IMG/VR virus record: IMGVR_UViG_3300005805_000058
Span: 26,269 to 90,268 of that record
DNA length: 64,000 nucleotides
From: a virus
Reading direction: 5' to 3' (one strand)
The notes beneath the pieces were generated by a model. It was not told the DNA's origin. It saw only the letters and a list, made by a program, of their open reading frames with translations, and made no database searches. The translations under genes and the position numbers were made by a program. Each line of letters opens with the position of its first letter. Position 1 is the stretch's first letter. Of this stretch, positions 15,747-46,541 are shown one piece after another.

Positions 15747-15956
15747 ATGCGTATTGCCACAATTTGCCCAACGTGTGCCACACAGATTAACTCTGTGTGC
15801 GTAATTTATGATGGTGAATATCTTGCTAACATAGATGTAGCTCCAGGAGATACCCTTGAGGAGATCCTAGCTAAAATCAATGGTAGCTGTGCTTGCACAA
15901 CTACTACTACAACTAGCAGTTCAACCACCACAACAACTACTACTATAGCACCATAA
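15747..15956 (+). CDS. Small Cys-rich protein with poly-Thr tail; paralogue of the fibre N-terminal anchor
   Basis: CPTC..INSVCVIYDGEYL..I...DTLEEILAKI aligns with the fibre start C...CP..LNSTCVFYEGANL..I...DNLQTALQKI. It ends TTTTTTSSSTTTTTTTIAP. Confidence 0.8.
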   Translation: MRIATICPTCATQINSVCVIYDGEYLANIDVAPGDTLEEILAKINGSCACTTTTTTSSSTTTTTTTIAP

Positions 15957-24900: not shown

Positions 24901-27900
24901 GCTGTTGGCTTTTGTGCTATGGCAGCTAACACAATAGGTACTAGAAACGTTTCTGTAGGTGCAGGTGCACTTCAAACTAATACAACAGGTAATGATAACG
25001 TTGCTGTAGGTAATTATGCTTTGTTAATTAATTCAGTAGGTGGTCAGAACGTAGCAGTGGGTAGAGGTGCTTTGAGATATAATACAGTTTCTACTAACAC
25101 AGCAGTGGGTAGTAGAGCTTTATATTGTAATACAACAGGTAATGGTGTTGCTATTGGATATAAAGCTTTGTTTAATAATACAATTGGTACTTCAAATACA
25201 GCAGTCGGTTTTTGTGCATTAACAGCTAACACTACAGGTCGTCAAAATGCAGCAGTAGGATTTAATGTACTATTGGCTAATACAACAGGTGTCTACAATA
25301 CAGGATTAGGAAATTGTGCTTTAGTATGTAACACAATTGGTGGTAGTAACACTGGTGTAGGCTTTAGAGCTTTGTTTAACAACTTAACAGGTTGTTACAA
25401 CATGGGCTTTGGTGAAGATGCTTTAAATGCCAACACAGCAGGATCTAACAACGTAGCTATTGGTAAATCCGCTTTAGGAACTAATACAGTATCAAACTTA
25501 ACAGCAGTTGGATCTAGTGCTTTAAGAGCAAACACTACAGGTACAAACAATACAGCCGTAGGTTTTGAAGCTTTGAGATATAACACAACAGGTAATCAAA
25601 ACACTGCTCTAGGCAATCTAGCTCTAAGACAGAACACTACAGGTTCTTACAACATATCTATAGGTACTTGTTCAATGAGGAACAACACTGTTGGTCAATC
25701 AAACGTAGCTATAGGTAGACTTGCTTTGTATGGAAATACAATTGGTAATGGTAACATAGCTATTGGTTGTAGAGCTCTAACATCAAACACAACAGCAGAA
25801 AACAATACAGCTGTTGGTGCAAACGCATTAAGAACTAATACCACAGGTGTATTTAACATAGCTATTGGTTCATCTGCATTATGTCTCAATGATGTAGGTG
25901 GTCGTAATGTTGCTGTTGGATATGGTTCATTACAAGTTAATACAGCAACTGGTAATACTGCTCTTGGTTTTAGAAGTTTAGTTGGTAATACTACAGGTAC
26001 TGGTAACACAGCAGTAGGATACTGTTCATTAGGAGCAAATACAATAGGTACTAATAACACAGCAGTTGGCGTTAGAGCTCTTCTTGCAAATACGACAGGA
26101 GAGCATAACACAGCAATTGGTCAGTGTGCTTTATTGTCAAATACAATTGGAAACAGTAATGTAGCAGTAGGTCATAGAGCATTAATGTGTAATACTACAG
26201 GCGCGAGTAACGTAGCAGTAGGTAGGTATAGCTCATACTCAAATACAGTAGGTACAAATAATACTTCATTAGGTCATTTTAGTCTATTATGTAACACAGC
26301 ATCAAACAACACAGCAATAGGTTTCTGTACTTTAAGGACTAATACCACTGGTACATATAATGTGGCAATAGGACACCGTTCTTTAGGCTTAAACACTACA
26401 GGAACTAGTAATAACTCTCTTGGTGCATTTTCTTTATTTAGAAATACTACAGGTGTAGGTAATGTAGCAATAGGTACTAGTGCATTAGAATTTAATACAG
26501 TTGGAGTTTGTAATATTGCTATTGGAAATGCTGCTCTATATTCAAATGATTCAGGAAATAACAACACTGCTATTGGAATATTTGCACTACGAGCTAACAC
26601 AGCATCTAACAATACAGCAGTAGGCTTTTGTGCGTTGAGATTTAATACTACTGGTACATACAACGTAGCAGTTGGTAGAAATGCTTTACGAGATAATACG
26701 ACAGGTGTTCGAAATACTGCATTAGGAAGTAGTGCGTTAGCTCCTAACACAACAGCGTCTGATAACGTTGCGTTAGGATTTCAAACGTTAGTAAGTTCAG
26801 TAACTGGAGGATGTAATGTAGCAGTAGGATCAAATTCTCTTGTATATAATACAGGAGGTTCAAATAATACAGCTGTAGGTCATCAATCACTATTCTGCAA
26901 CACAGCATCAAATAACACAGCAGTCGGTTTTTGTGCATTAAGAAGTAATACAACAGGATGTAGAAACACAGCTGTAGGATACCGTACGTTAACAACAAAT
27001 ACAATAGGCTATAGAAACGTTGGTGTAGGTGATAGAGCACTTTTTGCAAATACAACAGGTAATGACAACAATGCAGTAGGTGTTTATGCTCTATTCTGTA
27101 ATACAACAGGTATAAGAAACGTAGCAATAGGAACTGGAGCCATGTTTAACAACATAGGCGGTAGTTTTAATATGGCAATGGGCTTTAACTCGCTATGTAC
27201 AAACACAGCAGGTAGTAATAATATAGGAATAGGTTTCTATGCTTTAGGTTCTAACACAGCATCTAACAACGTAGCTGTAGGATTTTGTGCATTAAGAAAC
27301 AATACAACTGGTACAAGTAATGTAGCGGTAGGATTTAGAGCATTAATAAATAATACAACAGGTCTTGTAAACACTGCTTTAGGTAATAATGCAGCCCAAG
27401 GAAATACTACAGGTTACAACAACACTGCTTTAGGTAGTGAAGCTTTAAAATACAATTCAGTAGGTCTTAGTAACACCGCTGTAGGTTCTTCTGCTTTGTT
27501 AAATAATACCGCTTCTAATAATACAGCTATTGGTGCTAGTGCATTAGCATGTAACACTACAGGTACTTGTAATACAGCTGTTGGTATAGCAGCATTAAGA
27601 AGTAATACCACTGGTATTGTAAATTCAGCTTTTGGTTCTCAAGCTCTATATAGTAATACAACAGGATATTCAAACTCAGCATTTGGACAAGGTGCTTTAA
27701 GATGTAACGCTACAGGTGTCAACAACACAGCTGTAGGTAGAGAAGCAATGCAGTGTAATGTAAACGGTAGGTGTAATGTAGCTGTAGGTAATCTTGCGCT
27801 AAGTTGTAATATTACAGGATGTAACAATACAGCTATAGGAGTTTATTCTTTATTCTTAAATACAGCATCTAATAACACGGCAGTTGGTTTCTGTTCATTG

Positions 27901-31622: not shown

Positions 31623-32279
31623 ATGCGTAAAGTATTGATAGGCACTCCTTCATACGATGGGAGAATAGATGTTTGGTTTGCAAACAGCTTGGTTTCTACA
31701 GTGAAAATGTCCTATGAAAAGGACATACATGTTCACGCTATATACACAAGCTATGATTCTCTCATACAAAGAGCTAGGAACTCTCTCTTTAGACTTGCTC
31801 TACAGGGGGGATATGATGACCTATTCTTTATAGATAGTGATGTTGAATGGGAACCTGAATGGTTCTTTAGGCTTCTTGAAAGACCAGAACCTATTGTGGG
31901 ATGTGCTCTCATCAAAAAGGCTGAGAATGAAGGATATACAGTGAAGCTAGTGAACAAAAACTTGAAGTGGTCTAATGATAAAAAGCTCTTAGAAGTGGAT
32001 GGTGTGGGCACAGGCTTTATGAAGGTGAGTAGATTTGCTTTGGAAAAGCTATGGGAGATGAGTGATAAGTATATGTCAGAAGGTGAGGAGCACAGAATGA
32101 TTTGTGACATTCGTGTAGAGAATGGAGATTTGATTAGTGAGGATTATATTGTGTGCAGGAAGTGGCAAGACTTAGGATATAAGATATGGCTTGATCCAAC
32201 AATCACCATCAACCATATTGGTATTAAGAAATACAAAGGTGATTTTAATGCGTTCATAAAAAAGAACGGATATGTTTGA
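31623..32279 (+). CDS. GT-A fold glycosyltransferase (GT2-like)
   Basis: Motifs LIGTPSY, I.RARN, FFIDSDV (DxD), GTGFMKV and SEDYIVC. Confidence 0.8.
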   Translation: MRKVLIGTPSYDGRIDVWFANSLVSTVKMSYEKDIHVHAIYTSYDSLIQRARNSLFRLALQGGYDDLFFIDSDVEWEPEWFFRLLERPEPIVGCALIKKAENEGYTVKLVNKNLKWSNDKKLLEVDGVGTGFMKVSRFALEKLWEMSDKYMSEGEEHRMICDIRVENGDLISEDYIVCRKWQDLGYKIWLDPTITINHIGIKKYKGDFNAFIKKNGYV

Positions 32280-33177
32280 CAAACCAATGGGAGGCACAGA
32301 GCTCATGTACAATGAGCTAATGCGCAGATTACCAGATAGTTACAAAGAGAAGTTTTCTATATTTAACTACATATCACAGGCAGACTTTTCTAAAACCACA
32401 GTGTATTGGAACCAGTTGTCATATGATCAACAGGGTGTACAGTGGTTGTCAGACAAGAAGAACATAGACATGATTGATCATTTTGTCTTTGTTAGCTACT
32501 GGCAAGCTGAGAAGTACAGACAGATATTTGGCATTCCTGGATACAAAACAACTGTTATACAGAATGCTTGTATTGGTGTTCCTGATGTCACACGTAACAA
32601 TGATGTTATTAGGATGTGTTATACATCCACTCCATACAGAGGACTAGATGTTCTCATAGAGGCTTGGGATAAGTTAAACCCCAAGAACTGTGAGCTGCAC
32701 GTGTTCTCGAGCTGTAAGATATACGGTCCTGATTTTGCTCATACAGAGGAACCTAAATACACTGACCTGTACAATAGGTGTCTCAATACAAAAGGGATTG
32801 TATACAGAGGATCAATAGCTAATGATGAGCTTAGGAAAGAACTTCCTACGTTTGACATATTAGCCTATCCAAACACCTTTGAAGAAACCTCATGCATAGC
32901 TGTTATAGAAGCTTTGAGTGCAGGGTTGAGAGTGGTGACTAGCTCCTTGGGAGCATTACCAGAAACTTCAGAAGGTTGGGCTCGCATCTATCCCTATCTA
33001 ATGGATAAGGACAAACACGCTGAAGTGTTTGCTTCTGTTCTAAAGGAGGAGATGGAAGCTGTAGGAACCATCAACCTACAACTACAAAAAGAAATCTATG
33101 CTCCAAGATGGAGCTGGGATGCAAGAATAAACCAATGGATAAACTTTTTAGACACATTAACCCCAAAACAGCTCTAG
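32272..33177 (+). CDS. GT-B glycosyltransferase (GT4-like)
   Basis: Motifs GGTE, YTSTPYRGL, and ETSCIAVIEA (EX7E) followed by GALPE. Confidence 0.85.
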   Translation: MFDKPMGGTELMYNELMRRLPDSYKEKFSIFNYISQADFSKTTVYWNQLSYDQQGVQWLSDKKNIDMIDHFVFVSYWQAEKYRQIFGIPGYKTTVIQNACIGVPDVTRNNDVIRMCYTSTPYRGLDVLIEAWDKLNPKNCELHVFSSCKIYGPDFAHTEEPKYTDLYNRCLNTKGIVYRGSIANDELRKELPTFDILAYPNTFEETSCIAVIEALSAGLRVVTSSLGALPETSEGWARIYPYLMDKDKHAEVFASVLKEEMEAVGTINLQLQKEIYAPRWSWDARINQWINFLDTLTPKQL

Positions 33178-33737
33178 ATATTGGAGCACATGTAGGACAA
33201 TTTACAAGGAGCTTGTTGAAACAGTTTCCTAATTGTCAGGTGATTATGGTGGAGGCTAACCCAAAGTGTGAACCACACCTACAGAACACAGGGGTGAAAT
33301 ATGAAATGGTGGCACTCTCTGATTTTAATGGAGTGGCTAACCTATATATAGAGAACAATGATGAATTAGGAACTGGTGCTTCCTTATACAAGGAAAACAC
33401 AAATTGGTACAGTGAGGGTAAGAAACAAACTGTAACAACAAAACGCCTAGATGATTGTAATTATTTTGATGGAGCCCCAATAGATTTGATAAAGATGGAT
33501 GTGCAGGGTTCTGAATTAGATGTAGTGAGAGGTGGTTTAAATACAATAAAAAATGCTACCTTTGTGATGATGGAAACTTCTCTTCTACAATACAACCAAG
33601 GAGCTCCTTTGATTGATGCTGTAGTGGAGAGAATGATTAGTTTAAACTTCTGCATGTGGGATATTGTTGAATATCACAAGCTTTCAGACGGAACAATTTT
33701 CCAATTAGATATATTATTTAAAAACTTAAAACAATAA
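33135..33737 (+). CDS. FkbM-family SAM methyltransferase
   Basis: Motifs LDIGAHVG, VEANP and LIKMDVQGSELDVV.G. The ATG at 33135 is preferred over 33108. Confidence 0.85.
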   Translation: MDKLFRHINPKTALDIGAHVGQFTRSLLKQFPNCQVIMVEANPKCEPHLQNTGVKYEMVALSDFNGVANLYIENNDELGTGASLYKENTNWYSEGKKQTVTTKRLDDCNYFDGAPIDLIKMDVQGSELDVVRGGLNTIKNATFVMMETSLLQYNQGAPLIDAVVERMISLNFCMWDIVEYHKLSDGTIFQLDILFKNLKQ

Positions 33738-33744
33738 TAGAGCC

Positions 33745-34095
33745 ATGAAAATGCTATTTGCTAAGATTAATCCAGTTGCTGAGATCCCTGAGATGGAATC
33801 TCCTTTCGAGTATGTTGTAAAACAAGCTGACTACCTTACAGCTGTTGCTTCTCCCTATCGCTTAGGTGCTGAAGAAGTGAACTTCAGTCTCATCTATGGA
33901 ACAGCTACATTTGATGCTGAAGGAAACATGGAAACATTTACACGTTTGCTTGGTGGATCACTTACACTTGGTGCTCCTTACATTCAAGAATGGGGTATTG
34001 ATGATTCTGTAATCCTTGAAACAATCTGTGAACAAGTGGGTACAGAAGCTATTGAGTTCATCGAGGGTGATCCAAAGGACTTCAATCCATTCTAA
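33745..34095 (+). CDS. Acidic hypothetical protein (possibly fibre-associated)
   Basis: Clean ORF in the operon with strongly biased codon use; no recognised motif. Confidence 0.6.
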   Translation: MKMLFAKINPVAEIPEMESPFEYVVKQADYLTAVASPYRLGAEEVNFSLIYGTATFDAEGNMETFTRLLGGSLTLGAPYIQEWGIDDSVILETICEQVGTEAIEFIEGDPKDFNPF

Positions 34096-34119
34096 TTTAC
34101 AAACAAAACCAACGACATA

Positions 34120-34941
34120 ATGGTAAAGAAGATATTCTACAACAGCTCTCTTCCAAGAGCTGGAAGTACACTTATTCAGAATATTCTAGCACAGAATCCA
34201 CTAATACACTCTACACCAACCTCTGGTATATTTGAGCTGTACATGAATGCTCGTAACTATTTCTCTAATGGAATAGAATTCAAAGCACAAGATCAGCAAC
34301 AAATGGAGAATGGGTTTAAGGGGATGTTGAAAGATGGACTGTATGGATTTTACAATGCTATAACTGATCGTCCTTATGTCATAGAAAAGTCTAGGGGATG
34401 GGGGATGGAGCGTGAGTTCATTCATGCTTTTGATCCCAACCCCAAGATTATTTGTATGATTAGGGACATACGTGCTATATATTCATCATTAGAGAAGAAG
34501 TATAGACAGAATCCTCTTGTTGACACAAACATTGCTAACTGGGGTAACTTAACAGGTACCACCACAGATAAGCGAATGATTGTATGGTCAAACAATCCTC
34601 CTATTGGTCCAGCCCTGGACAGGTTATACCAGACACTTGTAGCTGGTACACATCAACACATTCTATTTATTAAGTTTGAAGAGCTATGTGCAGATCCTGA
34701 TACACAATTAAAACGTGTGTATGAGTATCTGGAGCTCCCTTATTTTGAACATGACTTCAAAAACATCCAACAGTATTCTGTAGAGGATGATAAATGGTAT
34801 GGTATATTTGGTGACCACATCATCCGTGGAGAACTTAAACCTGTAAAGGATGACTATAAAGAAGTGTTAGGTCCTAATGCTTGTAAGATTATAGAGGATA
34901 GTTACATGTGGTTCTTTAATGATTTTGGATATAAAATTTAA
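34120..34941 (+). CDS. PAPS-dependent sulfotransferase
   Basis: 5'-PSB loop SLPRAGSTL, 3'-PB motif IRDIRAIYSS, and IKFEELCADP. Confidence 0.85.
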   Translation: MVKKIFYNSSLPRAGSTLIQNILAQNPLIHSTPTSGIFELYMNARNYFSNGIEFKAQDQQQMENGFKGMLKDGLYGFYNAITDRPYVIEKSRGWGMEREFIHAFDPNPKIICMIRDIRAIYSSLEKKYRQNPLVDTNIANWGNLTGTTTDKRMIVWSNNPPIGPALDRLYQTLVAGTHQHILFIKFEELCADPDTQLKRVYEYLELPYFEHDFKNIQQYSVEDDKWYGIFGDHIIRGELKPVKDDYKEVLGPNACKIIEDSYMWFFNDFGYKI

Positions 34942-34944
34942 CGT

Positions 34945-35898
34945 ATGAACGTAGGATATAAAACCGACACAGAGGTACAGGAAACAGAGAAGTTCACTGT
35001 ACTAGAAGACAGATCTAAAGAAAGTGATAAGTATGTAGTGTGGCACATTGAGGGAGGGCTAGGAAAGAACATAGCTGCCACAGCGTTGATTGAGGATGTT
35101 AACAAACGCTATCCTGATAGGAAGCTCGTAATGGTGGTATCATACCCAGAGATTTTTCTGAACAATCCCCACATACACAGAGTGTACAGAGTGGGTATGA
35201 CATCTTATTTCTATGATGACTACATCAATGGTAAGGACACCATCATATTCAGACATGAGCCTTACTTCCAGAGTGATCACATCATGAAGAAGAAACATCT
35301 GATTCACAACTGGTGTGACCTGATGAATTTAGAATACAAGGAACAACTTCCTATATTCTATCCAAACGCTGTACAGAAAGGAATGGTGCATGCATTCATG
35401 CGTGAGAAACCCATCCTACTTATACAGACTAACGGTGGTGCTCTTAACAGCAACATGTCCTACTCATGGACAAGAGACATGCCTTTCTATGTAGCTATGG
35501 CTATTGCTGAGAGATATGCAAACTCCCATCACATTATACAGGTGACACGTCCTAACACACCTCTAATCCCTGGAGCTGAACAGTTCTTCCATCAGATGAC
35601 TAACTTTGAGCAGTTCTCAATGATAGCAGCTTCTGACAAACGTGTATTGATTGATTCTTCTCTACAGCACGCATCTGCAGCCATGGGATTGAGATCTACA
35701 GTGTTATGGATAGGAACATCTCCTGTCAACTTTGGATATAACATACACAATAACATTGTGGCAAATCCTCCAAAGGGTACAAACAAGTTGATTGATTCTT
35801 ATATATTTGACTATTCGTTTGAAGGTACACCTCACGAGTGTCCATATAATGACTTGACAGAAATGTTTAATGTGAATGAAATAATAAAATCAATATGA
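34945..35898 (+). CDS. GT-B glycosyltransferase (GT9/heptosyltransferase-like)
   Basis: N-terminal GGLGKNI loop and IDSSLQHASAAMG...VLW (DSxxxHxAAA). Confidence 0.7.
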   Translation: MNVGYKTDTEVQETEKFTVLEDRSKESDKYVVWHIEGGLGKNIAATALIEDVNKRYPDRKLVMVVSYPEIFLNNPHIHRVYRVGMTSYFYDDYINGKDTIIFRHEPYFQSDHIMKKKHLIHNWCDLMNLEYKEQLPIFYPNAVQKGMVHAFMREKPILLIQTNGGALNSNMSYSWTRDMPFYVAMAIAERYANSHHIIQVTRPNTPLIPGAEQFFHQMTNFEQFSMIAASDKRVLIDSSLQHASAAMGLRSTVLWIGTSPVNFGYNIHNNIVANPPKGTNKLIDSYIFDYSFEGTPHECPYNDLTEMFNVNEIIKSI

Positions 35899-36365
35899 TA
35901 ATAGTGTTGTTTGGGCAGCCACATTGTGGTAAATCAACTCTAGCCAAAGAATTAGAAATGTCTAGAGTGTTATATGGAGCAGTGAACATTGATGGTGATG
36001 AGCTTAGGAAGTTGTTTGTAAACACAGACTACAGCAGAGAAGGAAGACTTAGAAACTTGAATAGGGCTAGTGACATTGCTACATACCTAAACCATATGGG
36101 TGATGATGTTATCCTATCTCTTGTCTATCCTTACAAAGAAGCTAGAGACTATTTAAACAGTTTATGCAAGGATGTACATTGGATCTATCTCACTTACGAA
36201 GGTGAGAGAGGAAGAGAGAACTTTCATGTGAAAGACTTTGATGTTCCAACAGATGAACGTATATTGCACCTGGATACATCAAAGATGTCTCCATTTGATT
36301 GTGTAACTGAAATACTTAAATATGCAAAACTATCTAGCAAAAGCAACAGCTCCATCATCTTCTAA
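35895..36365 (+). CDS. cysC: Adenylylsulfate (APS) kinase
   Basis: P-loop GQPHCGKSTLA, IDGDELR and DYSREGRLRN. Confidence 0.75.
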   Translation: MIIVLFGQPHCGKSTLAKELEMSRVLYGAVNIDGDELRKLFVNTDYSREGRLRNLNRASDIATYLNHMGDDVILSLVYPYKEARDYLNSLCKDVHWIYLTYEGERGRENFHVKDFDVPTDERILHLDTSKMSPFDCVTEILKYAKLSSKSNSSIIF

Positions 36366-36720
36366 CTCAAAGAAGTATGCAATGTTTATTGGAAGATGGC
36401 AACCTTGGCATTCAGGTCACAGGTGGTTAATTGACCAAGCCCTTAATGAGGGTAAACATGTTTTGTTATGTATTAGAGAAGTGGAACCAGATGAGAAGAA
36501 TCCCTGGACACCTGGACAAGTTTTATTAAATTTAGCAAATGAACTGGAAGAACTGGTGGAATCAGGAAGACTCAGAATTATTACTATTCCTGATATTGAA
36601 TCTATTAACATTGGTCGTGGTATCGGTTATGATGTCATAGAACACATACCACCTCAAGACATACACGATATATCTGCTACAAGAATTAGAGAACAAATGA
36701 AAGCAGAGGGTAAGTTATGA
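36322..36720 (+). CDS. HIGH-superfamily nucleotidyltransferase (candidate minimal sulfate adenylyltransferase)
   Basis: GRWQPWHSGH (HxGH) and ISATRIR motifs; the gene overlaps cysC. Confidence 0.7.
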   Translation: MQNYLAKATAPSSSNSKKYAMFIGRWQPWHSGHRWLIDQALNEGKHVLLCIREVEPDEKNPWTPGQVLLNLANELEELVESGRLRIITIPDIESINIGRGIGYDVIEHIPPQDIHDISATRIREQMKAEGKL

Positions 36721-36941
36721 TAGTAGAAACAAAAAGACATATAGCCAAAACTATAAGCTACCGCATTATAAGCACACTGATTGGTGTGCTTACTATGTTT
36801 GTAGTGACAGGATCTATAAAAGCAGGAGCTGCATTTGGTGCAGCTGAGCTTTTATGGAAGCCCATACAATATTACATCCACGAACGTATTTGGTATAAGT
36901 GGGTTAGATATGGCCTAAGAGCGCAAAAACAACCTGACTAG
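36717..36941 (+). CDS. DUF2061-like small membrane protein
   Basis: KRHIAKTISYR...YYIHERIW pattern with hydrophobic segments. Confidence 0.75.
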   Translation: MIVETKRHIAKTISYRIISTLIGVLTMFVVTGSIKAGAAFGAAELLWKPIQYYIHERIWYKWVRYGLRAQKQPD

Positions 36942-39900
36942 CGTCTATCTTCCTATGGCATTCAAACTGCCTATCTGTTCCTTTGTGAACAGGACACCAA
37001 TCCCAATCTCCTGCATCAAATCTATATTCAGGTTTATTCCAGCATCCGTGACACACGTTTGTGTTATCTATTCTGATGCATTTAAACTCATGGTCAGCAT
37101 CTGTAAAGTTGCTAATCATCACCACCTTTTTGTTCATAGCCCAAGCTAACCAGCTCAGTCCACTAGATAGTCCTATGAATAGATGACTGTGATGAATGAC
37201 ATTCATGGTGTTCTCCATGGATGTATCTTCTATTTGCTCACAGTTGTCAAAAGGATTCTTCTCCTTAGATACATTTATCACTCTGTATCCCTTCTCATGC
37301 AGGAAGTTGATTACTGCCTGCCATCCCTCTTTGGTCCAGAACTTACAGCCAGATGTAGAATTAGTGGCTATTGTAATATACTTACCGTATGGATTATCAC
37401 TAGCATCAAAATCAATTCTTGGTTTAATCTCTTGATAATCAACGCCCAAGATGTTTGTTGCTGTTTCTTGTAGGTTAACTGTGTTACAAAGCTTGGGCTC
37501 TCTATCACTGTCATAAAACCAACCCACATTGTACATACCCATGATGTTGTTAACTACAGATCCTGGATTGACAAATTCAATCTCTGGATAGACATTCTTG
37601 AATAGGAAGTTTTTGAATGTGCTCACTATTACATGGCAGTTATGTTTCTTCTGAAACTCTAGAACATATGGCATCCATGCTATTGTATCTCCCAGTGACT
37701 TGCTGTCAAAAGCTATGTACACACGCTGGTTCTCATAGTTGAGAGTGTATTCGTAATACAGCTCTTCATCTTTCCACACCTTTATAGTCCACTTAGTATA
37801 CCAGCTTCTATTAAGCTTCACCCAGTGATTAATTTTTATCTTGTTCTCGTAGTGACACACACCCTGTTCATCGTAGAATCTAACAGTGAACAAGCTCTTT
37901 GAATTACCGTTGATTTCTAAGAATGGTGCATTTACAAAGTGATGATTGATTATAATGGTTTCTTTATCAGGTTGTGGAGGTCTGCTTATAACATCCTTGT
38001 ATAGCTCAATGTGCTTCTTAGCAAACTCCTGGTTCTGTCCTTCAGGAATAGTGTATGCTACACCAGTGATCGATCTCACCTGTTCTTCTAACTTCTCAGG
38101 CTTTAGATCTATAATATATTGTGTAAACATATTCCCATACTGAGGAAGGTTACGAGCTATAATTGGTAAGCCATACCCTATAGCTTCTCTAAGCACTAGA
38201 GGATTACATTCAAATGTGCTGTTAAATAAGAATACATCTGCAGCTGCCATGAATGCACCTACATCATCACGCTCTCCCCATACATGCACATTAGGTGGTA
38301 AGTCTTTCATAATGGGCTCCCAATAAGATTGAAAGTTCCCAGCTTGGTTACCTACAAAGTGGAAATGTACATCTGGCATTTGTCTAGCTAGCTCTACAGC
38401 TTCTCCTTGATTCTTACCAGGTGTCCATAGTCCTACATTAAGAACATGTGCACCAGCTCCTAAATCTATAGGAGCACTATGCTTCTTCTCAATAGGAAAC
38501 TCTATCACCTCTTTCCTAGAGGGCATGTTTTTGAATGTCTCTAGGTGATAGGGAGTACAGAAAGCATACGCATCTGGATGATAACGTTTCTCAATGTCTG
38601 GTTTGAATATAATGTTGTGACAGGTCTCAACCACTCTCCATGTCCTATCTGCAGTGTACAAAGCTTGTCTAAGTGATTCTGGCCAGTTATTATGACCATC
38701 TTCTACCATCTCCTCTACATGTACAACATCTACAGCATGTCTATTGATGATGTTCATTAGCTCCATTTTGTCCTCTTCTAACGTGTAGAAGTGGTGAGCT
38801 AGTTGCTTTATCTGATTCTTCTGTACAACATAATGATCACTGTGGTTGGCATATTCCACCACTACGATTTGCGAATTGCTAAATTCTAGGAGAGTTTGTA
38901 TTCTTTTCAAAAGGAATGCAGGCATACCACCTGTAGATAAGTGGGGGGCTAGGAACAGTATAGTTAGTTTGTTCTTCTGACGCTCTATCATCCTGTACAT
39001 AGTGACAGCATCTTTCTCTCCGTGATAGAACATTAGCTCATTAGTATGCGCTGGTGTAGCTATAAAGTGGTCTATGTGGTTCTTATAGCCAACAAACTGT
39101 ACATTGTTCACTCTGTCTAATGATCCATTTATGTATATGTACGGTAGACCATCTAGTTGTTTGTGCTTCCAGAGAAGAACGTTAGCTATAGTTTCTTCGT
39201 GATAGGGAGCATACCACTGAGGATTCTGGAGCACCTTGGGATGGTTGCACATCCACCACCAGTTGTCAAGGAATTCTTGACACCACTCACCTGCTACAAA
39301 GTATCCTGTTTGTCTATACTTATCTCTAACATGTTGATCTACACCAAAGAGCTCACAGGCTGGATGCTCAAGTGTACCAGACAGATTGTTTCTGTCAATA
39401 GCACCACCTCTTCCGTTGATAATCATCCATTCGTAAATACCTTCTGTGAAATATGGATGGGTAGATTTCACTGGGAAGTAGTCAAATATCCTATCCACAT
39501 ATTTAGTGGCTACACTGTCACTATCTATATAGGCTACAGTTTTGGCATAATTCAGGGCATCTTTTACAATTAACGGACGCTGTATTAGGATGTTGTAAAT
39601 ATCTACACTAGTCCTGTCAATATACTTCTGCTGGGGAACGTCCTTTATTTTACAACTCCAATTGAACACAATAGCCTCATCAAGCTCTATGTCTGAATCA
39701 AGCATGTAGACAATTATAGGAAGCTCACTAAAGCTCCTGATGGAATTTATACAGGCTTGTACAGTGTCAGCATAGCTCTCTGTAGCATATAGAACATAGG
39801 CTTTTTCAAACCGTAAATCTTTGTTTACGTAATACCCATACCACTGATTGTCATATAGTTTGACAAGCCCCTTATATCTAGACATCATCACCTCTGGTGT

Positions 39901-40320
39901 TAGGTCATCCTGGTGGTGGGTTTCATACTCATTCCCATATTCTGCCCCATCTTGAGGCATCATATATGGCACAGCTATTAGAAACCTCTTGTCCATCATC
40001 TCAAAATCAAAGATGAGATCTACAGCTTTGTCAGCAGGTATGTGCTCTAGAACATCTCCTAGGATGATGAAGTCGTAAGGAGCAACATCAAACTCTAAAA
40101 TGTCTCCAACATAAACATTGTCATACTTATCACGTAGATTGAACTGGTGGACATACGGTTCCCATATCTCTAGGGCATCCATTCTATATCCAAGATCTCT
40201 AAGTAGCTGAGAATAAGTGCCCTGACCTGGACCAACATCCAGTATGCGCTTGCTTGTAGGAACATTGTTTATGAACCACTCTTTGATTTCAGGTTTGAAA
40301 TAGGAATAACTGTTTGGCAT
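36904..40320 (-). CDS. Four-domain glycan enzyme: SAM methyltransferase + GT-A + GT4 + TibC/Aah-like autotransporter O-heptosyltransferase domain
   Basis: MTase: LDVGPGQG. GT-A: YIDSDS. GT4: STGGMP and ECNPLVLREA. TibC/Aah-like: SLGDTIAW, FIGLSSGLSWLAWA, and CHGCWN...WCP...FEC (four-Cys iron finger). Confidence 0.85.
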   Translation of the reverse strand: MPNSYSYFKPEIKEWFINNVPTSKRILDVGPGQGTYSQLLRDLGYRMDALEIWEPYVHQFNLRDKYDNVYVGDILEFDVAPYDFIILGDVLEHIPADKAVDLIFDFEMMDKRFLIAVPYMMPQDGAEYGNEYETHHQDDLTPEVMMSRYKGLVKLYDNQWYGYYVNKDLRFEKAYVLYATESYADTVQACINSIRSFSELPIIVYMLDSDIELDEAIVFNWSCKIKDVPQQKYIDRTSVDIYNILIQRPLIVKDALNYAKTVAYIDSDSVATKYVDRIFDYFPVKSTHPYFTEGIYEWMIINGRGGAIDRNNLSGTLEHPACELFGVDQHVRDKYRQTGYFVAGEWCQEFLDNWWWMCNHPKVLQNPQWYAPYHEETIANVLLWKHKQLDGLPYIYINGSLDRVNNVQFVGYKNHIDHFIATPAHTNELMFYHGEKDAVTMYRMIERQKNKLTILFLAPHLSTGGMPAFLLKRIQTLLEFSNSQIVVVEYANHSDHYVVQKNQIKQLAHHFYTLEEDKMELMNIINRHAVDVVHVEEMVEDGHNNWPESLRQALYTADRTWRVVETCHNIIFKPDIEKRYHPDAYAFCTPYHLETFKNMPSRKEVIEFPIEKKHSAPIDLGAGAHVLNVGLWTPGKNQGEAVELARQMPDVHFHFVGNQAGNFQSYWEPIMKDLPPNVHVWGERDDVGAFMAAADVFLFNSTFECNPLVLREAIGYGLPIIARNLPQYGNMFTQYIIDLKPEKLEEQVRSITGVAYTIPEGQNQEFAKKHIELYKDVISRPPQPDKETIIINHHFVNAPFLEINGNSKSLFTVRFYDEQGVCHYENKIKINHWVKLNRSWYTKWTIKVWKDEELYYEYTLNYENQRVYIAFDSKSLGDTIAWMPYVLEFQKKHNCHVIVSTFKNFLFKNVYPEIEFVNPGSVVNNIMGMYNVGWFYDSDREPKLCNTVNLQETATNILGVDYQEIKPRIDFDASDNPYGKYITIATNSTSGCKFWTKEGWQAVINFLHEKGYRVINVSKEKNPFDNCEQIEDTSMENTMNVIHHSHLFIGLSSGLSWLAWAMNKKVVMISNFTDADHEFKCIRIDNTNVCHGCWNKPEYRFDAGDWDWCPVHKGTDRQFECHRKIDASQVVFALLGHI

Positions 40321-42380: not shown

Positions 42381-43091
42381 ATGCCAATACCATCAAAACA
42401 AATAGGCTGGAGCACACAGGATAATCTGTTGTGGCAGATCGCTAAGCAAATGGAGCAAACTGGTTGTCAGCTCTGTACGCTTAATGATAACATCCAAACT
42501 ATTACAGGTACTAGTGGTACATCTGGCAGCTCAGGAGTTTCTGGTACATCAGGAACCACTCCTACATTCCCTCTACCGTTAGTGTATGGGTTATTTGCTC
42601 AGACAGCTAACAGTACGCCTGTAACAGGCACTACAGTAGAAACATCAATTATCAATGGTGGTGTGGGCACTCTCACTGTAGGAGCTAACCAGTTTAGTGT
42701 TGGAGATAGCTTTAGAGGTGACTTTGGAGGGGTGTTGAGTGCTGCTAACAATCAAACTATTAGAGTTAAAATAAAGGCTGGGTCAGTGATTCTTGCAGAT
42801 AGTGGTAACCAAAACATTACAAACATCACAAATGATGTTTGGACATTGTCTATCAACTTTACCATTAGACAACTTGGTGCTGCTGGAGTGGCATCAATTG
42901 TTAGTTTAGGACACTTCAACTATGCAAAAACAGTGAACGCTGTTGTAGAAGGCTTTTCTTTTAATACAATTAACAGTACCACATTTGACACCACAATTAG
43001 TAACACACTAGATGTTACAGTGCAATGGGGTAGTAATAACGCTGGAAACAGTATATACAGCGATATATTTGTACTAAATAAAATATATTAA
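42381..43091 (+). CDS. Putative virion decoration protein: N-anchor, short GTS stalk, beta-rich C-domain
   Basis: IPSKQIGW...CQLC anchor, then GTSGTSGSSGVSGTSGTT, then a Thr/Asn/Gly-rich domain. Confidence 0.65.
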   Translation: MPIPSKQIGWSTQDNLLWQIAKQMEQTGCQLCTLNDNIQTITGTSGTSGSSGVSGTSGTTPTFPLPLVYGLFAQTANSTPVTGTTVETSIINGGVGTLTVGANQFSVGDSFRGDFGGVLSAANNQTIRVKIKAGSVILADSGNQNITNITNDVWTLSINFTIRQLGAAGVASIVSLGHFNYAKTVNAVVEGFSFNTINSTTFDTTISNTLDVTVQWGSNNAGNSIYSDIFVLNKIY

Positions 43092-43092
43092 A

Positions 43093-43245
43093 ATGGCAAT
43101 ACCAAGTAAACAGATAGGTTGGGGTACAACAGAGAACTTGTTATGGCAGATTGCAAAGCAACTGGAGGGCATCTCTTGTCAGCTTTGTGATTTGAATAAC
43201 AACTTCACCACCACAACCACCACTACAACTGTAGCTCCTGAATAA
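43093..43245 (+). CDS. 50-aa poly-Thr paralogue of the 42381 N-anchor (not in ORF track)
   Basis: Translated by hand: MAIPSKQIGWGTTENLLWQIAKQLEGISCQLCDLNNNFTTTTTTTTVAPE. Confidence 0.85.
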   Translation: MAIPSKQIGWGTTENLLWQIAKQLEGISCQLCDLNNNFTTTTTTTTVAPE

Positions 43246-43274
43246 GGAATAACAAAACCAACAAAACTACATAT

Positions 43275-44291
43275 ATGAAGGATCTTAAATTCATCTGTGC
43301 ACAGCCAGATGATACCTACTACACATGGCAAGTGCATCTTTGGTTAGAGAGTTTAAAGAACATAGGACATTCAGACAAAGCTATTATCCTGGTTTTCACT
43401 CCCTCCTTTAGAGAGAAGAACACTAAGTGGGATCAGATTGTCAGCCTCTATCCAGAAGCTGAGTTTGTGTTTTACAAAGATGAAGATAAGATTAGCAACC
43501 TACTAGGAATATATATTCCTGTCTTACGCCCTTATGTACTCATGAGGTATTTCAGAGACAACCCACAGATGGTTAGTAAGGCAGTGTTCTACTGTGACAG
43601 TGATATATTGTTTACAGAGAAGTTTGACCTAAGCCCATTCATAGATGATGATGTGTGCTATTTGTCAAACACGAACAGCTATATAAACGCTTCATATTTT
43701 GATAGTAAGATTAAAGATGTCAAGCCTGAAAAGCTTGATGTGTATAAAACAAGAGATGTTCTGGCTGAACTAACTAGTCTTGTGGGAATCACTAGACAAG
43801 TGGCAGAAGATAACAATGATCACTCTGGAGGAGCTCAATACTTGTTGAAGAACATAGGAGCTAGCTTCTGGGAAAAGGTGATTAACGATTGTCTTGTCAT
43901 CAGAACCTATCTAAGTAATATAAACAAGGAGTTTTTTGAAAGCGAGAGCAAAGGGTTTCAGTCATGGTGTGCAGATATGTGGGCTGTGTTATGGAACCTA
44001 TGGCTAAGAGATCAAGAGACAAAAGTGATTCCAGAACTGGAGTTTGCTTGGAGCTCAGACAGGATTGAGAAGCTTGAGAAAACAACCATCCTTCATAACG
44101 CAGGGATAGTTGCTAACACTCAGGGTGATATACCCACCTTCTACAAGGGCTTATATCACGCTGGTAAGGATCCTTTCTCAGATGCACATCTCACAGAGGT
44201 GTTGAATAATGAGAAGAGCAAGACGCTCTGTAATCATTACTACCTAACAAAGCTATTTGAAATTAAAAACAAATATAATTTAAACTATTAA
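43275..44291 (+). CDS. GT-A glycosyltransferase, possibly peptidyl-O-glycosyltransferase (SGT1/HPAT-like)
   Basis: DxD motif FYCDSDI. N-terminal C...YYTWQ and C-terminal WCADMWA recall the YxxWQ and WxxEMY motifs of plant SGT1/HPAT enzymes. Confidence 0.6.
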   Translation: MKDLKFICAQPDDTYYTWQVHLWLESLKNIGHSDKAIILVFTPSFREKNTKWDQIVSLYPEAEFVFYKDEDKISNLLGIYIPVLRPYVLMRYFRDNPQMVSKAVFYCDSDILFTEKFDLSPFIDDDVCYLSNTNSYINASYFDSKIKDVKPEKLDVYKTRDVLAELTSLVGITRQVAEDNNDHSGGAQYLLKNIGASFWEKVINDCLVIRTYLSNINKEFFESESKGFQSWCADMWAVLWNLWLRDQETKVIPELEFAWSSDRIEKLEKTTILHNAGIVANTQGDIPTFYKGLYHAGKDPFSDAHLTEVLNNEKSKTLCNHYYLTKLFEIKNKYNLNY

Positions 44292-44293
44292 TT

Positions 44294-44512
44294 ATGGCCA
44301 CAATTGACAAACGCCCTCTCAAAGCTTATGTACGCTTTGACGGTACTGGGAGAATCGTTCCCAGCAGCCTGATTTTAAGAAGAAAGAAGCCCAAGGTTGG
44401 TAATTGGGTGGAGATTCCAGCATATGAGTGCTGCAATCCTACCACTAGCACTACCACCACTGCAGCTCCTACCACCACAACAACAACCACCACTGAGGCT
44501 CCTCCTCTATAA
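44294..44512 (+). CDS. Small protein with ECC motif and poly-Thr tail (tandem paralogue 1)
   Basis: LKAYVRFDGTGR...KPKVGNW.EI.AYECCNPTTSTTTTAAPTTTTTTTEAPP. Confidence 0.85.
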   Translation: MATIDKRPLKAYVRFDGTGRIVPSSLILRRKKPKVGNWVEIPAYECCNPTTSTTTTAAPTTTTTTTTEAPPL

Positions 44513-44523
44513 ACTAATACTAT

Positions 44524-44739
44524 ATGGCAAGTAATAAAAGATTGTTAAAAGCATTTGTACGTTATGATGGTACAGGACGCTTAATCGCTGGTTCTCTCAT
44601 TCTTCAGGCTAAGAAGCCTAAGGTGGGTAACTGGCAGGAAATTGATGCTTATGAGTGTTGTAATCCTACAACATCTACAACAACTACAGCAGCTCCTACA
44701 ACTACCACCACTACAACCACAGAGCCTCCAATTATATAA
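44524..44739 (+). CDS. Small protein with ECC motif and poly-Thr tail (tandem paralogue 2)
   Basis: Closely similar protein to 44294-44512, with diverged synonymous codons. Confidence 0.85.
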   Translation: MASNKRLLKAFVRYDGTGRLIAGSLILQAKKPKVGNWQEIDAYECCNPTTSTTTTAAPTTTTTTTTEPPII

Positions 44740-45760: not shown

Positions 45761-45927
45761 TGAAAAAAGAAATGATCAAACGTAAGGATGGTTCTATTTC
45801 ACAACGTGGTTTGTGGGATAACTTGAGGAGCAAAGCAGCTCAGAATAAGAAAACTGGTGCTAAACCTAAGGCTCCTACAAAAGCTATGTTAGCTCAGGAG
45901 AAAAAGATCAAAGCTAAAGGAAAATGA
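45760..45927 (+). CDS. 55-aa Lys-rich protein (not in ORF track)
   Basis: MKKEMIKRKDGSISQRGLWDNLRSKAAQNKKTGAKPKAPTKAMLAQEKKIKAKGK; TAATG and ATGA overlaps on both sides. Confidence 0.75.
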   Translation: MKKEMIKRKDGSISQRGLWDNLRSKAAQNKKTGAKPKAPTKAMLAQEKKIKAKGK

Positions 45928-46541
45928 CACTAGCTATTAGTAGTGAAAATAAACAGAAATACTTCTCTGAGAAACAAAAAGGAGGAGTTGTTTATAAAAT
46001 TACTAATGAGGTAGATGGTAAGTTCTATATAGGAAGTACAAACAATCTGATAAAAAGGTATTACACTCACATCCACGATATACGTTCTGGTAAAAACACA
46101 TGTGTAAAGTTAATCAGGGCAGTGAATAAACATGGAGAGAATAACTTTAAGTTTGAGATTGTTTGTGAATGTCCTACTGAGGAGATTCTTAAAACAGAAC
46201 AAGAGTACATAGACAATCTTAAGCCACATTACAATGTAGCTAAGATTGCTGGTAGTAATCTTGGGATAAAGAGAACTGAAGAGGTTAAGCGTAAGAAATC
46301 AGTTTCTCAAAAGGAGAATTGGAAAGATGAAGCTTATAGGAGTAAACACCTAGAAAACTTATCAAAGAACTGGAAAGCTGGTTCTAATCATAAACTGGCT
46401 AAACTTACAGAAGAACAGGTCATTGAGATTAAGAAACATCTAGTAAATGGTCTTCTTCCTAAACAGGTTGCAGATAGTTTAAAAGTAAGTTATCACTCTG
46501 TAAAAGACATTCACAGAGGAAAAACTTGGAAACATATTTAA
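45924..46541 (+). mobile_element. Free-standing GIY-YIG homing endonuclease
   Basis: GVVYKITN...FYIGST...R, then EQEYID...YN, a NUMOD3-like segment and a C-terminal KLTEEQV...HTH...GKTWKHI. Confidence 0.85.

Follow-up and report, generated by a model that had tools for sequence, protein, structure and literature searches.

A glycosyltransferase gene paired with poly-threonine proteins in an uncultured phage suggests O-glycosylation of virion proteins

A 64,000-nucleotide stretch of viral DNA (IMG/VR record IMGVR_UViG_3300005805_000058, positions 26,269 to 90,268; hereafter the window) encodes a putative 338-residue glycosyltransferase lying among three short genes whose products carry runs of threonine, which raises the question of what this enzyme modifies and whether the threonine runs are its acceptors. 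The window is the final 64 kb of a 90-kb record estimated to be 78% complete, the uncultured phage having a genome of about 115 kb. Based on gene linkage and on a predicted structure, we consider it most likely (probability about 0.75) that the enzyme adds the first sugar to Thr hydroxyls in poly-Thr tracts of phage proteins, and as the pairing of enzyme and tract recurs in unrelated phages, this virus probably sugar-coats parts of its particle. An earlier reading of the DNA made without database searches (the sequence-only reading) had proposed an enzyme-substrate cassette in the order poly-Thr mini-protein, enzyme, two poly-Thr paralogues, and this is exactly the order in the list of open reading frames (ORFs).

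We defined a poly-Thr ORF as one with at least 7 Thr in 10 residues, and a scan of the 370 window ORFs of at least 35 residues identified four. Three of these (50, 72 and 71 residues) are within 1.65 kb around the enzyme gene, and the fourth is the 69-residue ORF of Table 1; this arrangement exceeds chance. The Thr runs are encoded by mixed ACA, ACC and ACT codons, and the 72- and 71-residue paralogues, with 77% nucleotide identity over 120 nt, nonetheless end alike (S-TTTT-AAP-TTTTTTTT-E), which argues that the runs were selected as protein and did not arise by DNA slippage.

To related phages we devoted a set of 80 IMG/VR loci in which the enzyme is 67–85% identical to the 338-residue protein. 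ORFs passing the same threshold were present in 78 of the 80, and all 174 such ORFs, among 5135 ORFs in total, were located no more than 2.5 kb from the enzyme gene, in a region that makes up 52.7% of the bases in these loci; the poly-Thr ORFs listed were all on the enzyme's strand. Nearly every one starts with one of a few conserved N-terminal modules (N-modules), which by pattern were type B (91 ORFs), type A (66) or type C (4), while inspection of the 13 unassigned ORFs by eye identified seven type A variants, five type B-like proteins and one that could not be classified. An ORF of 44–65 residues with a type A module and a Thr run is present upstream of the enzyme gene in 59 of the 80 loci by the pattern used, and a type A poly-Thr ORF of any length in 65. 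Type B modules occur 123 times in the set (82 distinct sequences), with a type B poly-Thr ORF in 69 of the 80 loci. Up to several hundred residues can follow the Thr run, or none at all, and in relatives large C-terminal domains are attached to types A and B as well.

The linkage extends to phages of other hosts. A tblastn search (E ≤ 1e-5) identified homologs to the enzyme in 77 phage records, all with less than 60% identity, from phages of Lactobacillus, Enterococcus, Staphylococcus, Lactococcus, Clostridium, Chryseobacterium and others. A strict scan, which required Thr or Ser at 8 or more of 10 positions, was applied to eight of the 77 phages and found tracts near the homolog in six, and reading of the ORFs in the remaining two, phiCTP1 and ENFP1, identified T-rich C-terminal tails directly upstream of the enzyme gene, bringing the count to 8/8. 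For example, the enzyme gene of phiFL1A follows that of the annotated major tail protein, a protein with a long Thr/Ser run at its end. All 80 of the Enterococcus-type loci had poly-Thr ORFs, nearly all of these being C-terminal tails on proteins of capsid size (~325–400 residues) or tail-tube size (~200–220 residues), and in temperate phages the enzyme gene is within the head and tail modules, not those for lysogeny or replication. We also conducted a presence/absence test on 80 loci with homologs to the bIL285 tail-tube protein (41–100% identity). After setting aside 11 loci with short flanks (one with both tail and enzyme, ten with neither), the remaining 69 comprised 13 with both a Thr tail and the enzyme, 56 with neither, and none that were discordant. 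A profile of the type B module, made from the 82 distinct sequences, had no match in either Chryseobacterium phage MA9V-3 or the loci of Firmicutes phages, from which we conclude that the acceptor N-modules are lineage-specific. The synteny survey that the sequence-only reading had named as a check thus shows the pairing both in related loci and in other phage lineages; the proposed enzyme-substrate cassette gains from this co-occurrence in several unrelated lineages and from the Bacteroidota peptide clusters described below, all of it support of a comparative genomic kind.

The enzyme itself belongs to an uncharacterized family. It matched PHROGs family phrog_4417, of unknown function, with a strong score (E 1.3e-54, 186 bits) that extended over residues 4–305 of the protein and 1–272 of the 293 profile positions. 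No Pfam family matched it at E ≤ 1, NCBIfam gave nothing meaningful, and no relative was identified among solved chains by phmmer or by a profile search. A word-indexed search at E ≤ 1e-3 found 2629 family members (771 representatives at 50% identity); among the 120 family matches listed, none had a Pfam domain or a name beyond hypothetical protein. Three motifs stand out in the sequence: CAQPDDTYYTWQ near the N-terminus, DSD at 108–110, and WCADMWA at 231–237. In 67 diverse full-length relatives Y80, D108, D110, Y136, F257, H274 and K291 are invariant and Q229 and D234 nearly so, and the positions of the DxD motif and the histidine (D108, D110 and H274) are also invariant in 72 further relatives, most of which are fused to other domains.

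An AlphaFold2 model built on the alignment of relatives scored highly (predicted local distance difference test 97.5, predicted template modelling (TM) score 0.94) and has a single Rossmann-like alpha/beta/alpha domain that matches solved GT-A glycosyltransferases over most of its length, with the Asp-x-Asp motif D108/D110 directly after the fourth predicted strand (E103–107). The best Foldseek match in the PDB was glycogenin (E 7.9e-7, TM score 0.46–0.49 on the query), followed by WbbM, GT6 enzymes, XXYLT1 and UGGT. A search independent of Foldseek identified the Skp1 alpha-galactosyltransferase (Z 14.1, root-mean-square deviation 3.7 Å over 216 residues) and glycogenin (Z 14.0, 3.9 Å over 231 residues), followed by UGGT (Z 13.7), LgtC (13.5), WbbM (13.2), GlyE (12.9), LARGE1 (12.5) and PBCV-1 A64R (11.1). 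Among predicted viral structures the best matches were uncharacterized phage proteins and Lactobacillus phage LP65 Orf49, and then viral GT8-like enzymes. The nearest solved neighbors of the model are thus retaining GT8-type transferases, several of them protein-acting, and by sequence the enzyme falls in none of their families. In GT8 enzymes, which are retaining, the catalytic His and Lys belong to an HxxGxxKPW-like motif toward the C-terminus; the phage enzyme and its 67 relatives have the invariant residues H274 and K291. The Pfam domain Glyco_transf_8 (GT8) was absent from the Pfam tallies of the 67 relatives and from the first 25 of the 33 families tallied for the 72; assignment to CAZy family GT8 by sequence was rejected for want of a Pfam match, which leaves the fold resemblance alone. 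As for the domains fused to relatives, they include methyltransferase, GT2, GT6, GT7C, GT25, radical-SAM/SPASM, O-fucosyltransferase and GlcNAc-transferase domains, fusions that fit a role in glycan building. One such relative (P0266, 1369 residues) combines an O-fucosyltransferase, a Skp1-type GlcNAc-transferase (PF11397), an F5/8 type C domain and the enzyme domain (residues 766–1038).

The sequence-only reading had recognized by eye the three motifs listed above, called the protein a GT-A enzyme, and on this basis suggested kinship with the plant hydroxyproline O-arabinosyltransferases (HPATs) and peptidyl-serine galactosyltransferase of families GT95 and GT96, which are initiating O-glycosyltransferases for repetitive, extended protein segments (extensins). 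The motifs are present and conserved in relatives and the GT-A call is backed by the predicted fold; the kinship was not confirmed. Pfam's HPAT model PF23452 had no match to the 338-residue enzyme at E ≤ 1, nor to the six-frame translation of the genome at E ≤ 10, and among 147 relatives it made two weak matches (best E 0.012; the curated cut-off is 23.9 bits), corresponding to 2/67 of the diverse relatives, 0/72 of the further relatives and 0/8 of the named phage homologs. The model likewise had no match in five Bacteroidota genomes that hold homologs or in 401 Bacteroidota genomes; 14 control genomes were blank too, and the Bacteroidota blanks therefore say little. A look-up in a language-model Atlas placed PF23452 on 10–58% of the members in 22 of the 30 nearest named clusters, making it the commonest family there (DUF7164 was on six clusters), which we treat as a lead and not a test, PF23452 being prominent in Atlas look-ups only. 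GT95 is predicted to be GT-A-like, and a 2021 prediction assigned GT96 a new fold (PMC8476585); the two families are related, HPATs being type II Golgi membrane proteins (PMC8012813). A type II anchor of this kind was rejected for the phage enzyme, which has its first strand from residue 4 and no N-terminal hydrophobic segment. Unlike the plant HPATs, the phage enzyme is predicted to be soluble and to have Thr, not hydroxyproline or Ser, as its acceptor, and it is missed by the HPAT model. We regard kinship with GT95/GT96 as a possibility worth keeping in view, albeit one with the odds against it.

Our searches also identified homologs to the enzyme outside phages, in a form of ~520 residues with an extra C-terminal domain that is encoded on the chromosomes of Chitinophaga, Pedobacter, Mucilaginibacter, Sphingobacterium and other bacteria. 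From 107 confirmed chromosomal stretches we kept 80 (L089–L168), and a leader profile identified 51 GG-leader peptides in 39 of them, most being 50–100 residues long and 48 of the 51 on the enzyme's strand. The peptide cores contain 11% Gly, 11% Ser, 11% Thr and 9.5% Cys and are often Ser/Thr-rich at their opening; the same profile identified no GG-leader peptide in 240 phage loci. In one Sphingobacterium locus (L150:1804–9707) genes for a C39 peptidase-VKOR-thioredoxin protein, a thioredoxin and two GT2 enzymes flank the peptide gene, and a Pedobacter locus (L090:2144–6713) has a weak LanC-like neighbor. These Bacteroidota loci are candidate clusters for glycosylated, disulfide-rich peptides, and their predicted GG-leader neighbors support an enzyme that acts on peptides. 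They also recall the glycocins (e.g., sublancin and glycocin F), which are GG-leader, disulfide-bonded, glycosylated bacteriocins made by SunS-type GT2 enzymes: as in glycocin clusters, the Bacteroidota homologs adjoin GG-leader Cys-rich peptides, the C39 peptidase-VKOR-thioredoxin protein and GT2 genes, and unlike in those clusters the transferase is of a different family and the phylum is another one.

The modules that head the poly-Thr proteins offer a hint as to how these proteins might reach the virion. The N-terminal ~35 residues of the 50-residue mini-protein are common to the 236-residue product of the preceding ORF, which makes the latter part of the cassette. This 236-residue protein has the triplets GTS, GTS, GSS, GVS, GTS and GTT, and many of its 3967 homologs have Pfam collagen repeats at the position of these six Gly-X-Y triplets. 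We observed that the family has a constant N-module, a Gly-X-Y stalk that varies from none to ~30 triplets, and a conserved jelly-roll head, the last with a weak structural likeness to TNF/C1q and to BclA. BclA, of the Bacillus anthracis exosporium, has a collagen-like GXT stalk that is O-glycosylated on Thr and a TNF/C1q-like head; the 236-residue fibre-like protein shares a Gly-X-Y stalk and a similar head with it, but the match is weak, with a Z-score within the range of common arrangements. The type A N-module of the 236-residue protein is possibly a virion anchor, and as the 50-residue ORF has the same module, this suggests that the mini-protein takes the docking site of the fibre and shows only a Thr tail. 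Neither a leader nor an export signal is present in the phage mini-proteins. Paired cysteines (CxxC, CC or CxC) lie at most 10 residues ahead of the Thr run in types A and B and in the 69-residue ORF (window 43177–43203, 44420–44440, 44650–44670 and 15880–15900), and Cys next to Thr-rich stretches is also seen in the bacterial leader peptides; these pairs may form a disulfide or a metal site or be S-glycosylated.

Poly-Thr segments are also encoded elsewhere in the genome, so that the three flanking mini-proteins are not the only candidate targets. Upstream of the window, an 1811-residue protein (genome 9340–14775) that matches a virion structural family (E 2e-106) contains four poly-Thr linkers within its C-terminal 300 residues, a 385-residue ORF (genome 2073–3230) has a T-rich C-terminal tail, and a 167-residue ORF (genome 14806–15309) has an internal Thr run. 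The window also encodes several enzymes with a possible bearing on glycans (Table 1). The largest, the 1138-residue enzyme, scored 274.9 bits against TIGR04414 (cut-off 200), a domain of the type found in TibC/Aah protein O-heptosyltransferases, and may serve either in glycan extension or as a second enzyme of initiation; by eye, it has a further DSD-bearing segment at approximately residues 170–450. The glycan-context genes that precede it (Table 1) could tailor the glycan.

Table 1. Features of the enzyme/poly-Thr locus and of its setting, in window coordinates.
Feature	Position	Strand	Description
Poly-Thr mini-protein, 50 residues	43093–43245	+	Type A N-terminal helical module, then eight Thr, then VAPE; predicted acceptor
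GT-A glycosyltransferase, 338 residues, soluble, phrog_4417	43275–44291	+	Predicted initiating O-glycosyltransferase for poly-Thr tracts
Poly-Thr mini-protein, 72 residues	44294–44512	+	Type B N-module of ~45 residues ending ECC, then poly-Thr tail; predicted acceptor
Poly-Thr mini-protein, 71 residues	44524–44739	+	Paralog of the 72-residue ORF, same tail in different codons; predicted acceptor
Fibre-like protein, 236 residues	42381–43091	+	Type A N-module, six Gly-X-Y triplets, jelly-roll head of ~170 residues
69-residue ORF, Cys-rich N-terminal part and poly-Thr/Ser tail	15747–15956	+	Between two giant ORFs; further candidate acceptor
1138-residue multidomain enzyme	36904–40320	-	Methyltransferase, GT4-type domain, TibC/Aah-type protein O-heptosyltransferase (Pfam; TIGR04414)
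Weak GT2-like ORF, GT4-type ORF, FkbM methyltransferase, sulfotransferase, APS kinase, small nucleotidyltransferase	31623–36720	+	Glycan context
GIY-YIG/HNH-type homing endonuclease	45924–46541		phrog_314, E 5.6e-26

Taking together the predicted fold, the conservation of the catalytic motifs and the pairing of enzyme with tract in several lineages, we propose that this soluble, metal-dependent (DxD) GT-A enzyme would act in the host cytoplasm, transferring the first sugar onto Thr hydroxyls before or during virion assembly. Its nearest acceptors would be the mini-proteins encoded on either side of its gene, each made of an N-module and a Thr run, which would probably attach to the particle and present a glycosylated tail, given that one of these modules also heads the collagen-like fibre. 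The poly-Thr linkers of larger virion proteins in this genome would probably be modified too, and the glycan may be lengthened and decorated by the other transferases, the methyltransferases and the products of the sulfation genes. Once attached to the virion, such glycans might serve in shielding or in adhesion.

Several observations weigh against this proposal. Among the 80 related loci, L072 alone has the enzyme gene with no Thr run within 6 kb, and in L049 the run is no more than a short TTSTTTT. Identity among the 13 positive tail-tube loci is 97–100%, and they hence represent one or two evolutionary events, not 13; as the loci within each group are related, the pairing occurs in perhaps six to ten separate lineages and not in hundreds. 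Poly-Thr ORFs were found in only 3 of the 80 chromosomal Bacteroidota loci, which indicates that the enzyme family is not tied to pure Thr runs, and the finding of GG-leader peptides in 39 of the 80 comes from a profile built from 21 of the same loci and stands without a background rate for Bacteroidota genomes. A retaining mechanism is suggested by fold neighbors of ~10% identity, and the case for Thr glycosylation as a whole is built from a predicted fold and co-occurrence. In addition, the TibC/Aah-type domain could be the initiating enzyme here. As a separate observation on L072 (L072:5461–7455), its type A mini-ORF is shortened to 32 residues and its type B protein runs from ECC straight into a folded domain.

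The objection from the TibC/Aah-type domain can be stated as an alternative, in which the TibC/Aah-like domain of the 1138-residue protein or a host enzyme adds the first sugar and the 338-residue enzyme the second. The presence of a protein O-heptosyltransferase-type domain 3 kb away is in keeping with it, as is the fact that many of the fold neighbors (LgtC, LARGE1, XXYLT1) act on sugars and not on proteins, but the enzyme and the Thr tail appear and disappear jointly in small Firmicutes phages, and the bIL285 annotation around the gene names no other glycosyltransferase, the rest of the small-phage genomes not having been searched. It is because enzyme and tail come and go as a pair that an initiating role for the 338-residue enzyme is supported, and we judge the extending role to be unlikely. 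The roles for which phage glycosyltransferases are best known are the glucosylation of DNA and the conversion of the host serotype (PMC12619734), and the enzyme might by analogy act on bases of the phage DNA or, so as to convert the serotype or mask a receptor, on a polysaccharide of the host surface, leaving the Thr runs as mere flexible linkers nearby. We rejected such a role based on linkage (no discordant case among the 69 tail-tube loci, and 174/174 Thr-run ORFs clustered at the enzyme gene), on the position of the gene in the head and tail modules of temperate phages, on the enzyme having no membrane segment, and on the precursor peptides that adjoin its bacterial relatives, and we give it the smallest chance of the explanations discussed here. 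Secreted bacterial proteins commonly contain poly-Thr and Pro-Thr linkers, a point that we counted in favor of this linker explanation.

Only slightly more credible is that the mini-ORFs encode no virion parts and instead yield free glycopeptides or primers, serving as small carriers for the building of a glycan with a later use elsewhere, in the way that glycogenin primes glycogen, or being released like the GG-leader peptides. The mini-proteins are just 44–72 residues long, glycogenin is among the top fold matches, and the bacterial relatives are in clusters for exported peptides, all of which would suit this explanation. Set against these points, a collagen-like fibre that bears a globular head begins with the type A module as well, types A and B are attached to large C-terminal domains in relatives, the predicted acceptors in other phages are capsid and tail-tube proteins, and an export signal is lacking from the phage mini-proteins; we therefore see very little prospect of it. 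Initiating glycosylation of Thr tracts on virion proteins thus remains our preferred explanation. A far broader proposal can be framed around it, namely that phrog_4417 is a widespread and so far unrecognized family of O-glycosyltransferases for Thr-rich tags on peptides and proteins that coats capsids, tail tubes, fibres and mini-proteins in phages of Bacteroidota and Firmicutes, makes (from chromosomal copies in Bacteroidota) glycosylated disulfide-rich GG-leader peptides of an undescribed class, and is the sister, in prokaryotes and viruses, of the plant families GT95/GT96; we offer this tentatively, as speculation that we would not expect to hold in full.

The closest known system is the glycosylation of mycobacteriophage virions (Che8 and relatives). 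As described in articles that cite the study of it by Freeman et al. (2023, Cell Host Microbe 31:1216), namely PMC11256854 and PMC12619734, phage glycosyltransferases there glycosylate the C-termini of capsid and tail-tube proteins, such that the phage's own structural proteins are modified in the host cytoplasm, and a glycan shield has been proposed. The likeness is one of gene content only, in that a phage-encoded transferase accompanies acceptor tails on virion proteins. The differences are the enzyme family, which appears to be another one (none of the 77 phage records matched by tblastn is under Mycobacterium in the organism breakdown, the mycobacteriophage enzymes not having been compared directly), the Bacteroidota and Firmicutes hosts, and the signature of near-pure Thr runs; moreover, the nearest predicted acceptors here are mini-proteins and fibre linkers, not tail-tube tails, with the T-rich tail of the 385-residue ORF possibly being a capsid tail. 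In its predicted fold the enzyme resembles retaining GT8-type, protein-acting GT-A enzymes, i.e., glycogenin, the Skp1 alpha-galactosyltransferase (6mw8) and GlyE (5gvv), an enzyme of the pneumococcal serine-rich-repeat pathway, and it differs from them in sequence, with ~10% identity, no Pfam glycosyltransferase match at E ≤ 1 and no sequence-profile match to solved chains. A literature search, with most subscription journals outside its coverage, found no paper that deals with phrog_4417, with HPAT-like enzymes encoded by phages, or with poly-Thr tags in phages of Firmicutes or Bacteroidota.

If the proposal is correct, sugar-coated virions would be common and not a curiosity of mycobacteriophages, with a reach that would include phages of Enterococcus, Lactococcus, Staphylococcus and Lactobacillus as well as abundant environmental phages of Bacteroidota. 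This would bear on phage therapy (antibody recognition, clearance and stability), on dairy phage biology, and on the sticking of phages to mucus or polysaccharide matrices, while the bacterial clusters would point to a possible new class of glycosylated peptides. Because the system is minimal, with one enzyme and one short tag, it is directly testable and might be useful as a portable glycosylation tag.

With regard to the genome setting, the plus-strand block of the window contains the giant ORFs, the glycan enzymes, an endolysin and the enzyme/poly-Thr cassette, and the minus-strand block contains rIIA/rIIB, a ribonucleotide reductase and a UvsX-like recombinase. Weak or absent Shine-Dalgarno leaders are a property of Bacteroidota hosts. 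The starts at 42381, 43093, 43275, 44294, 44524 and 44749 have A/T-rich leaders with no Shine-Dalgarno-like purine run in the 20 nt upstream, which fits a Bacteroidota host. Downstream of the cassette, the gene for the homing endonuclease is inserted amid those for Lys-rich small proteins.

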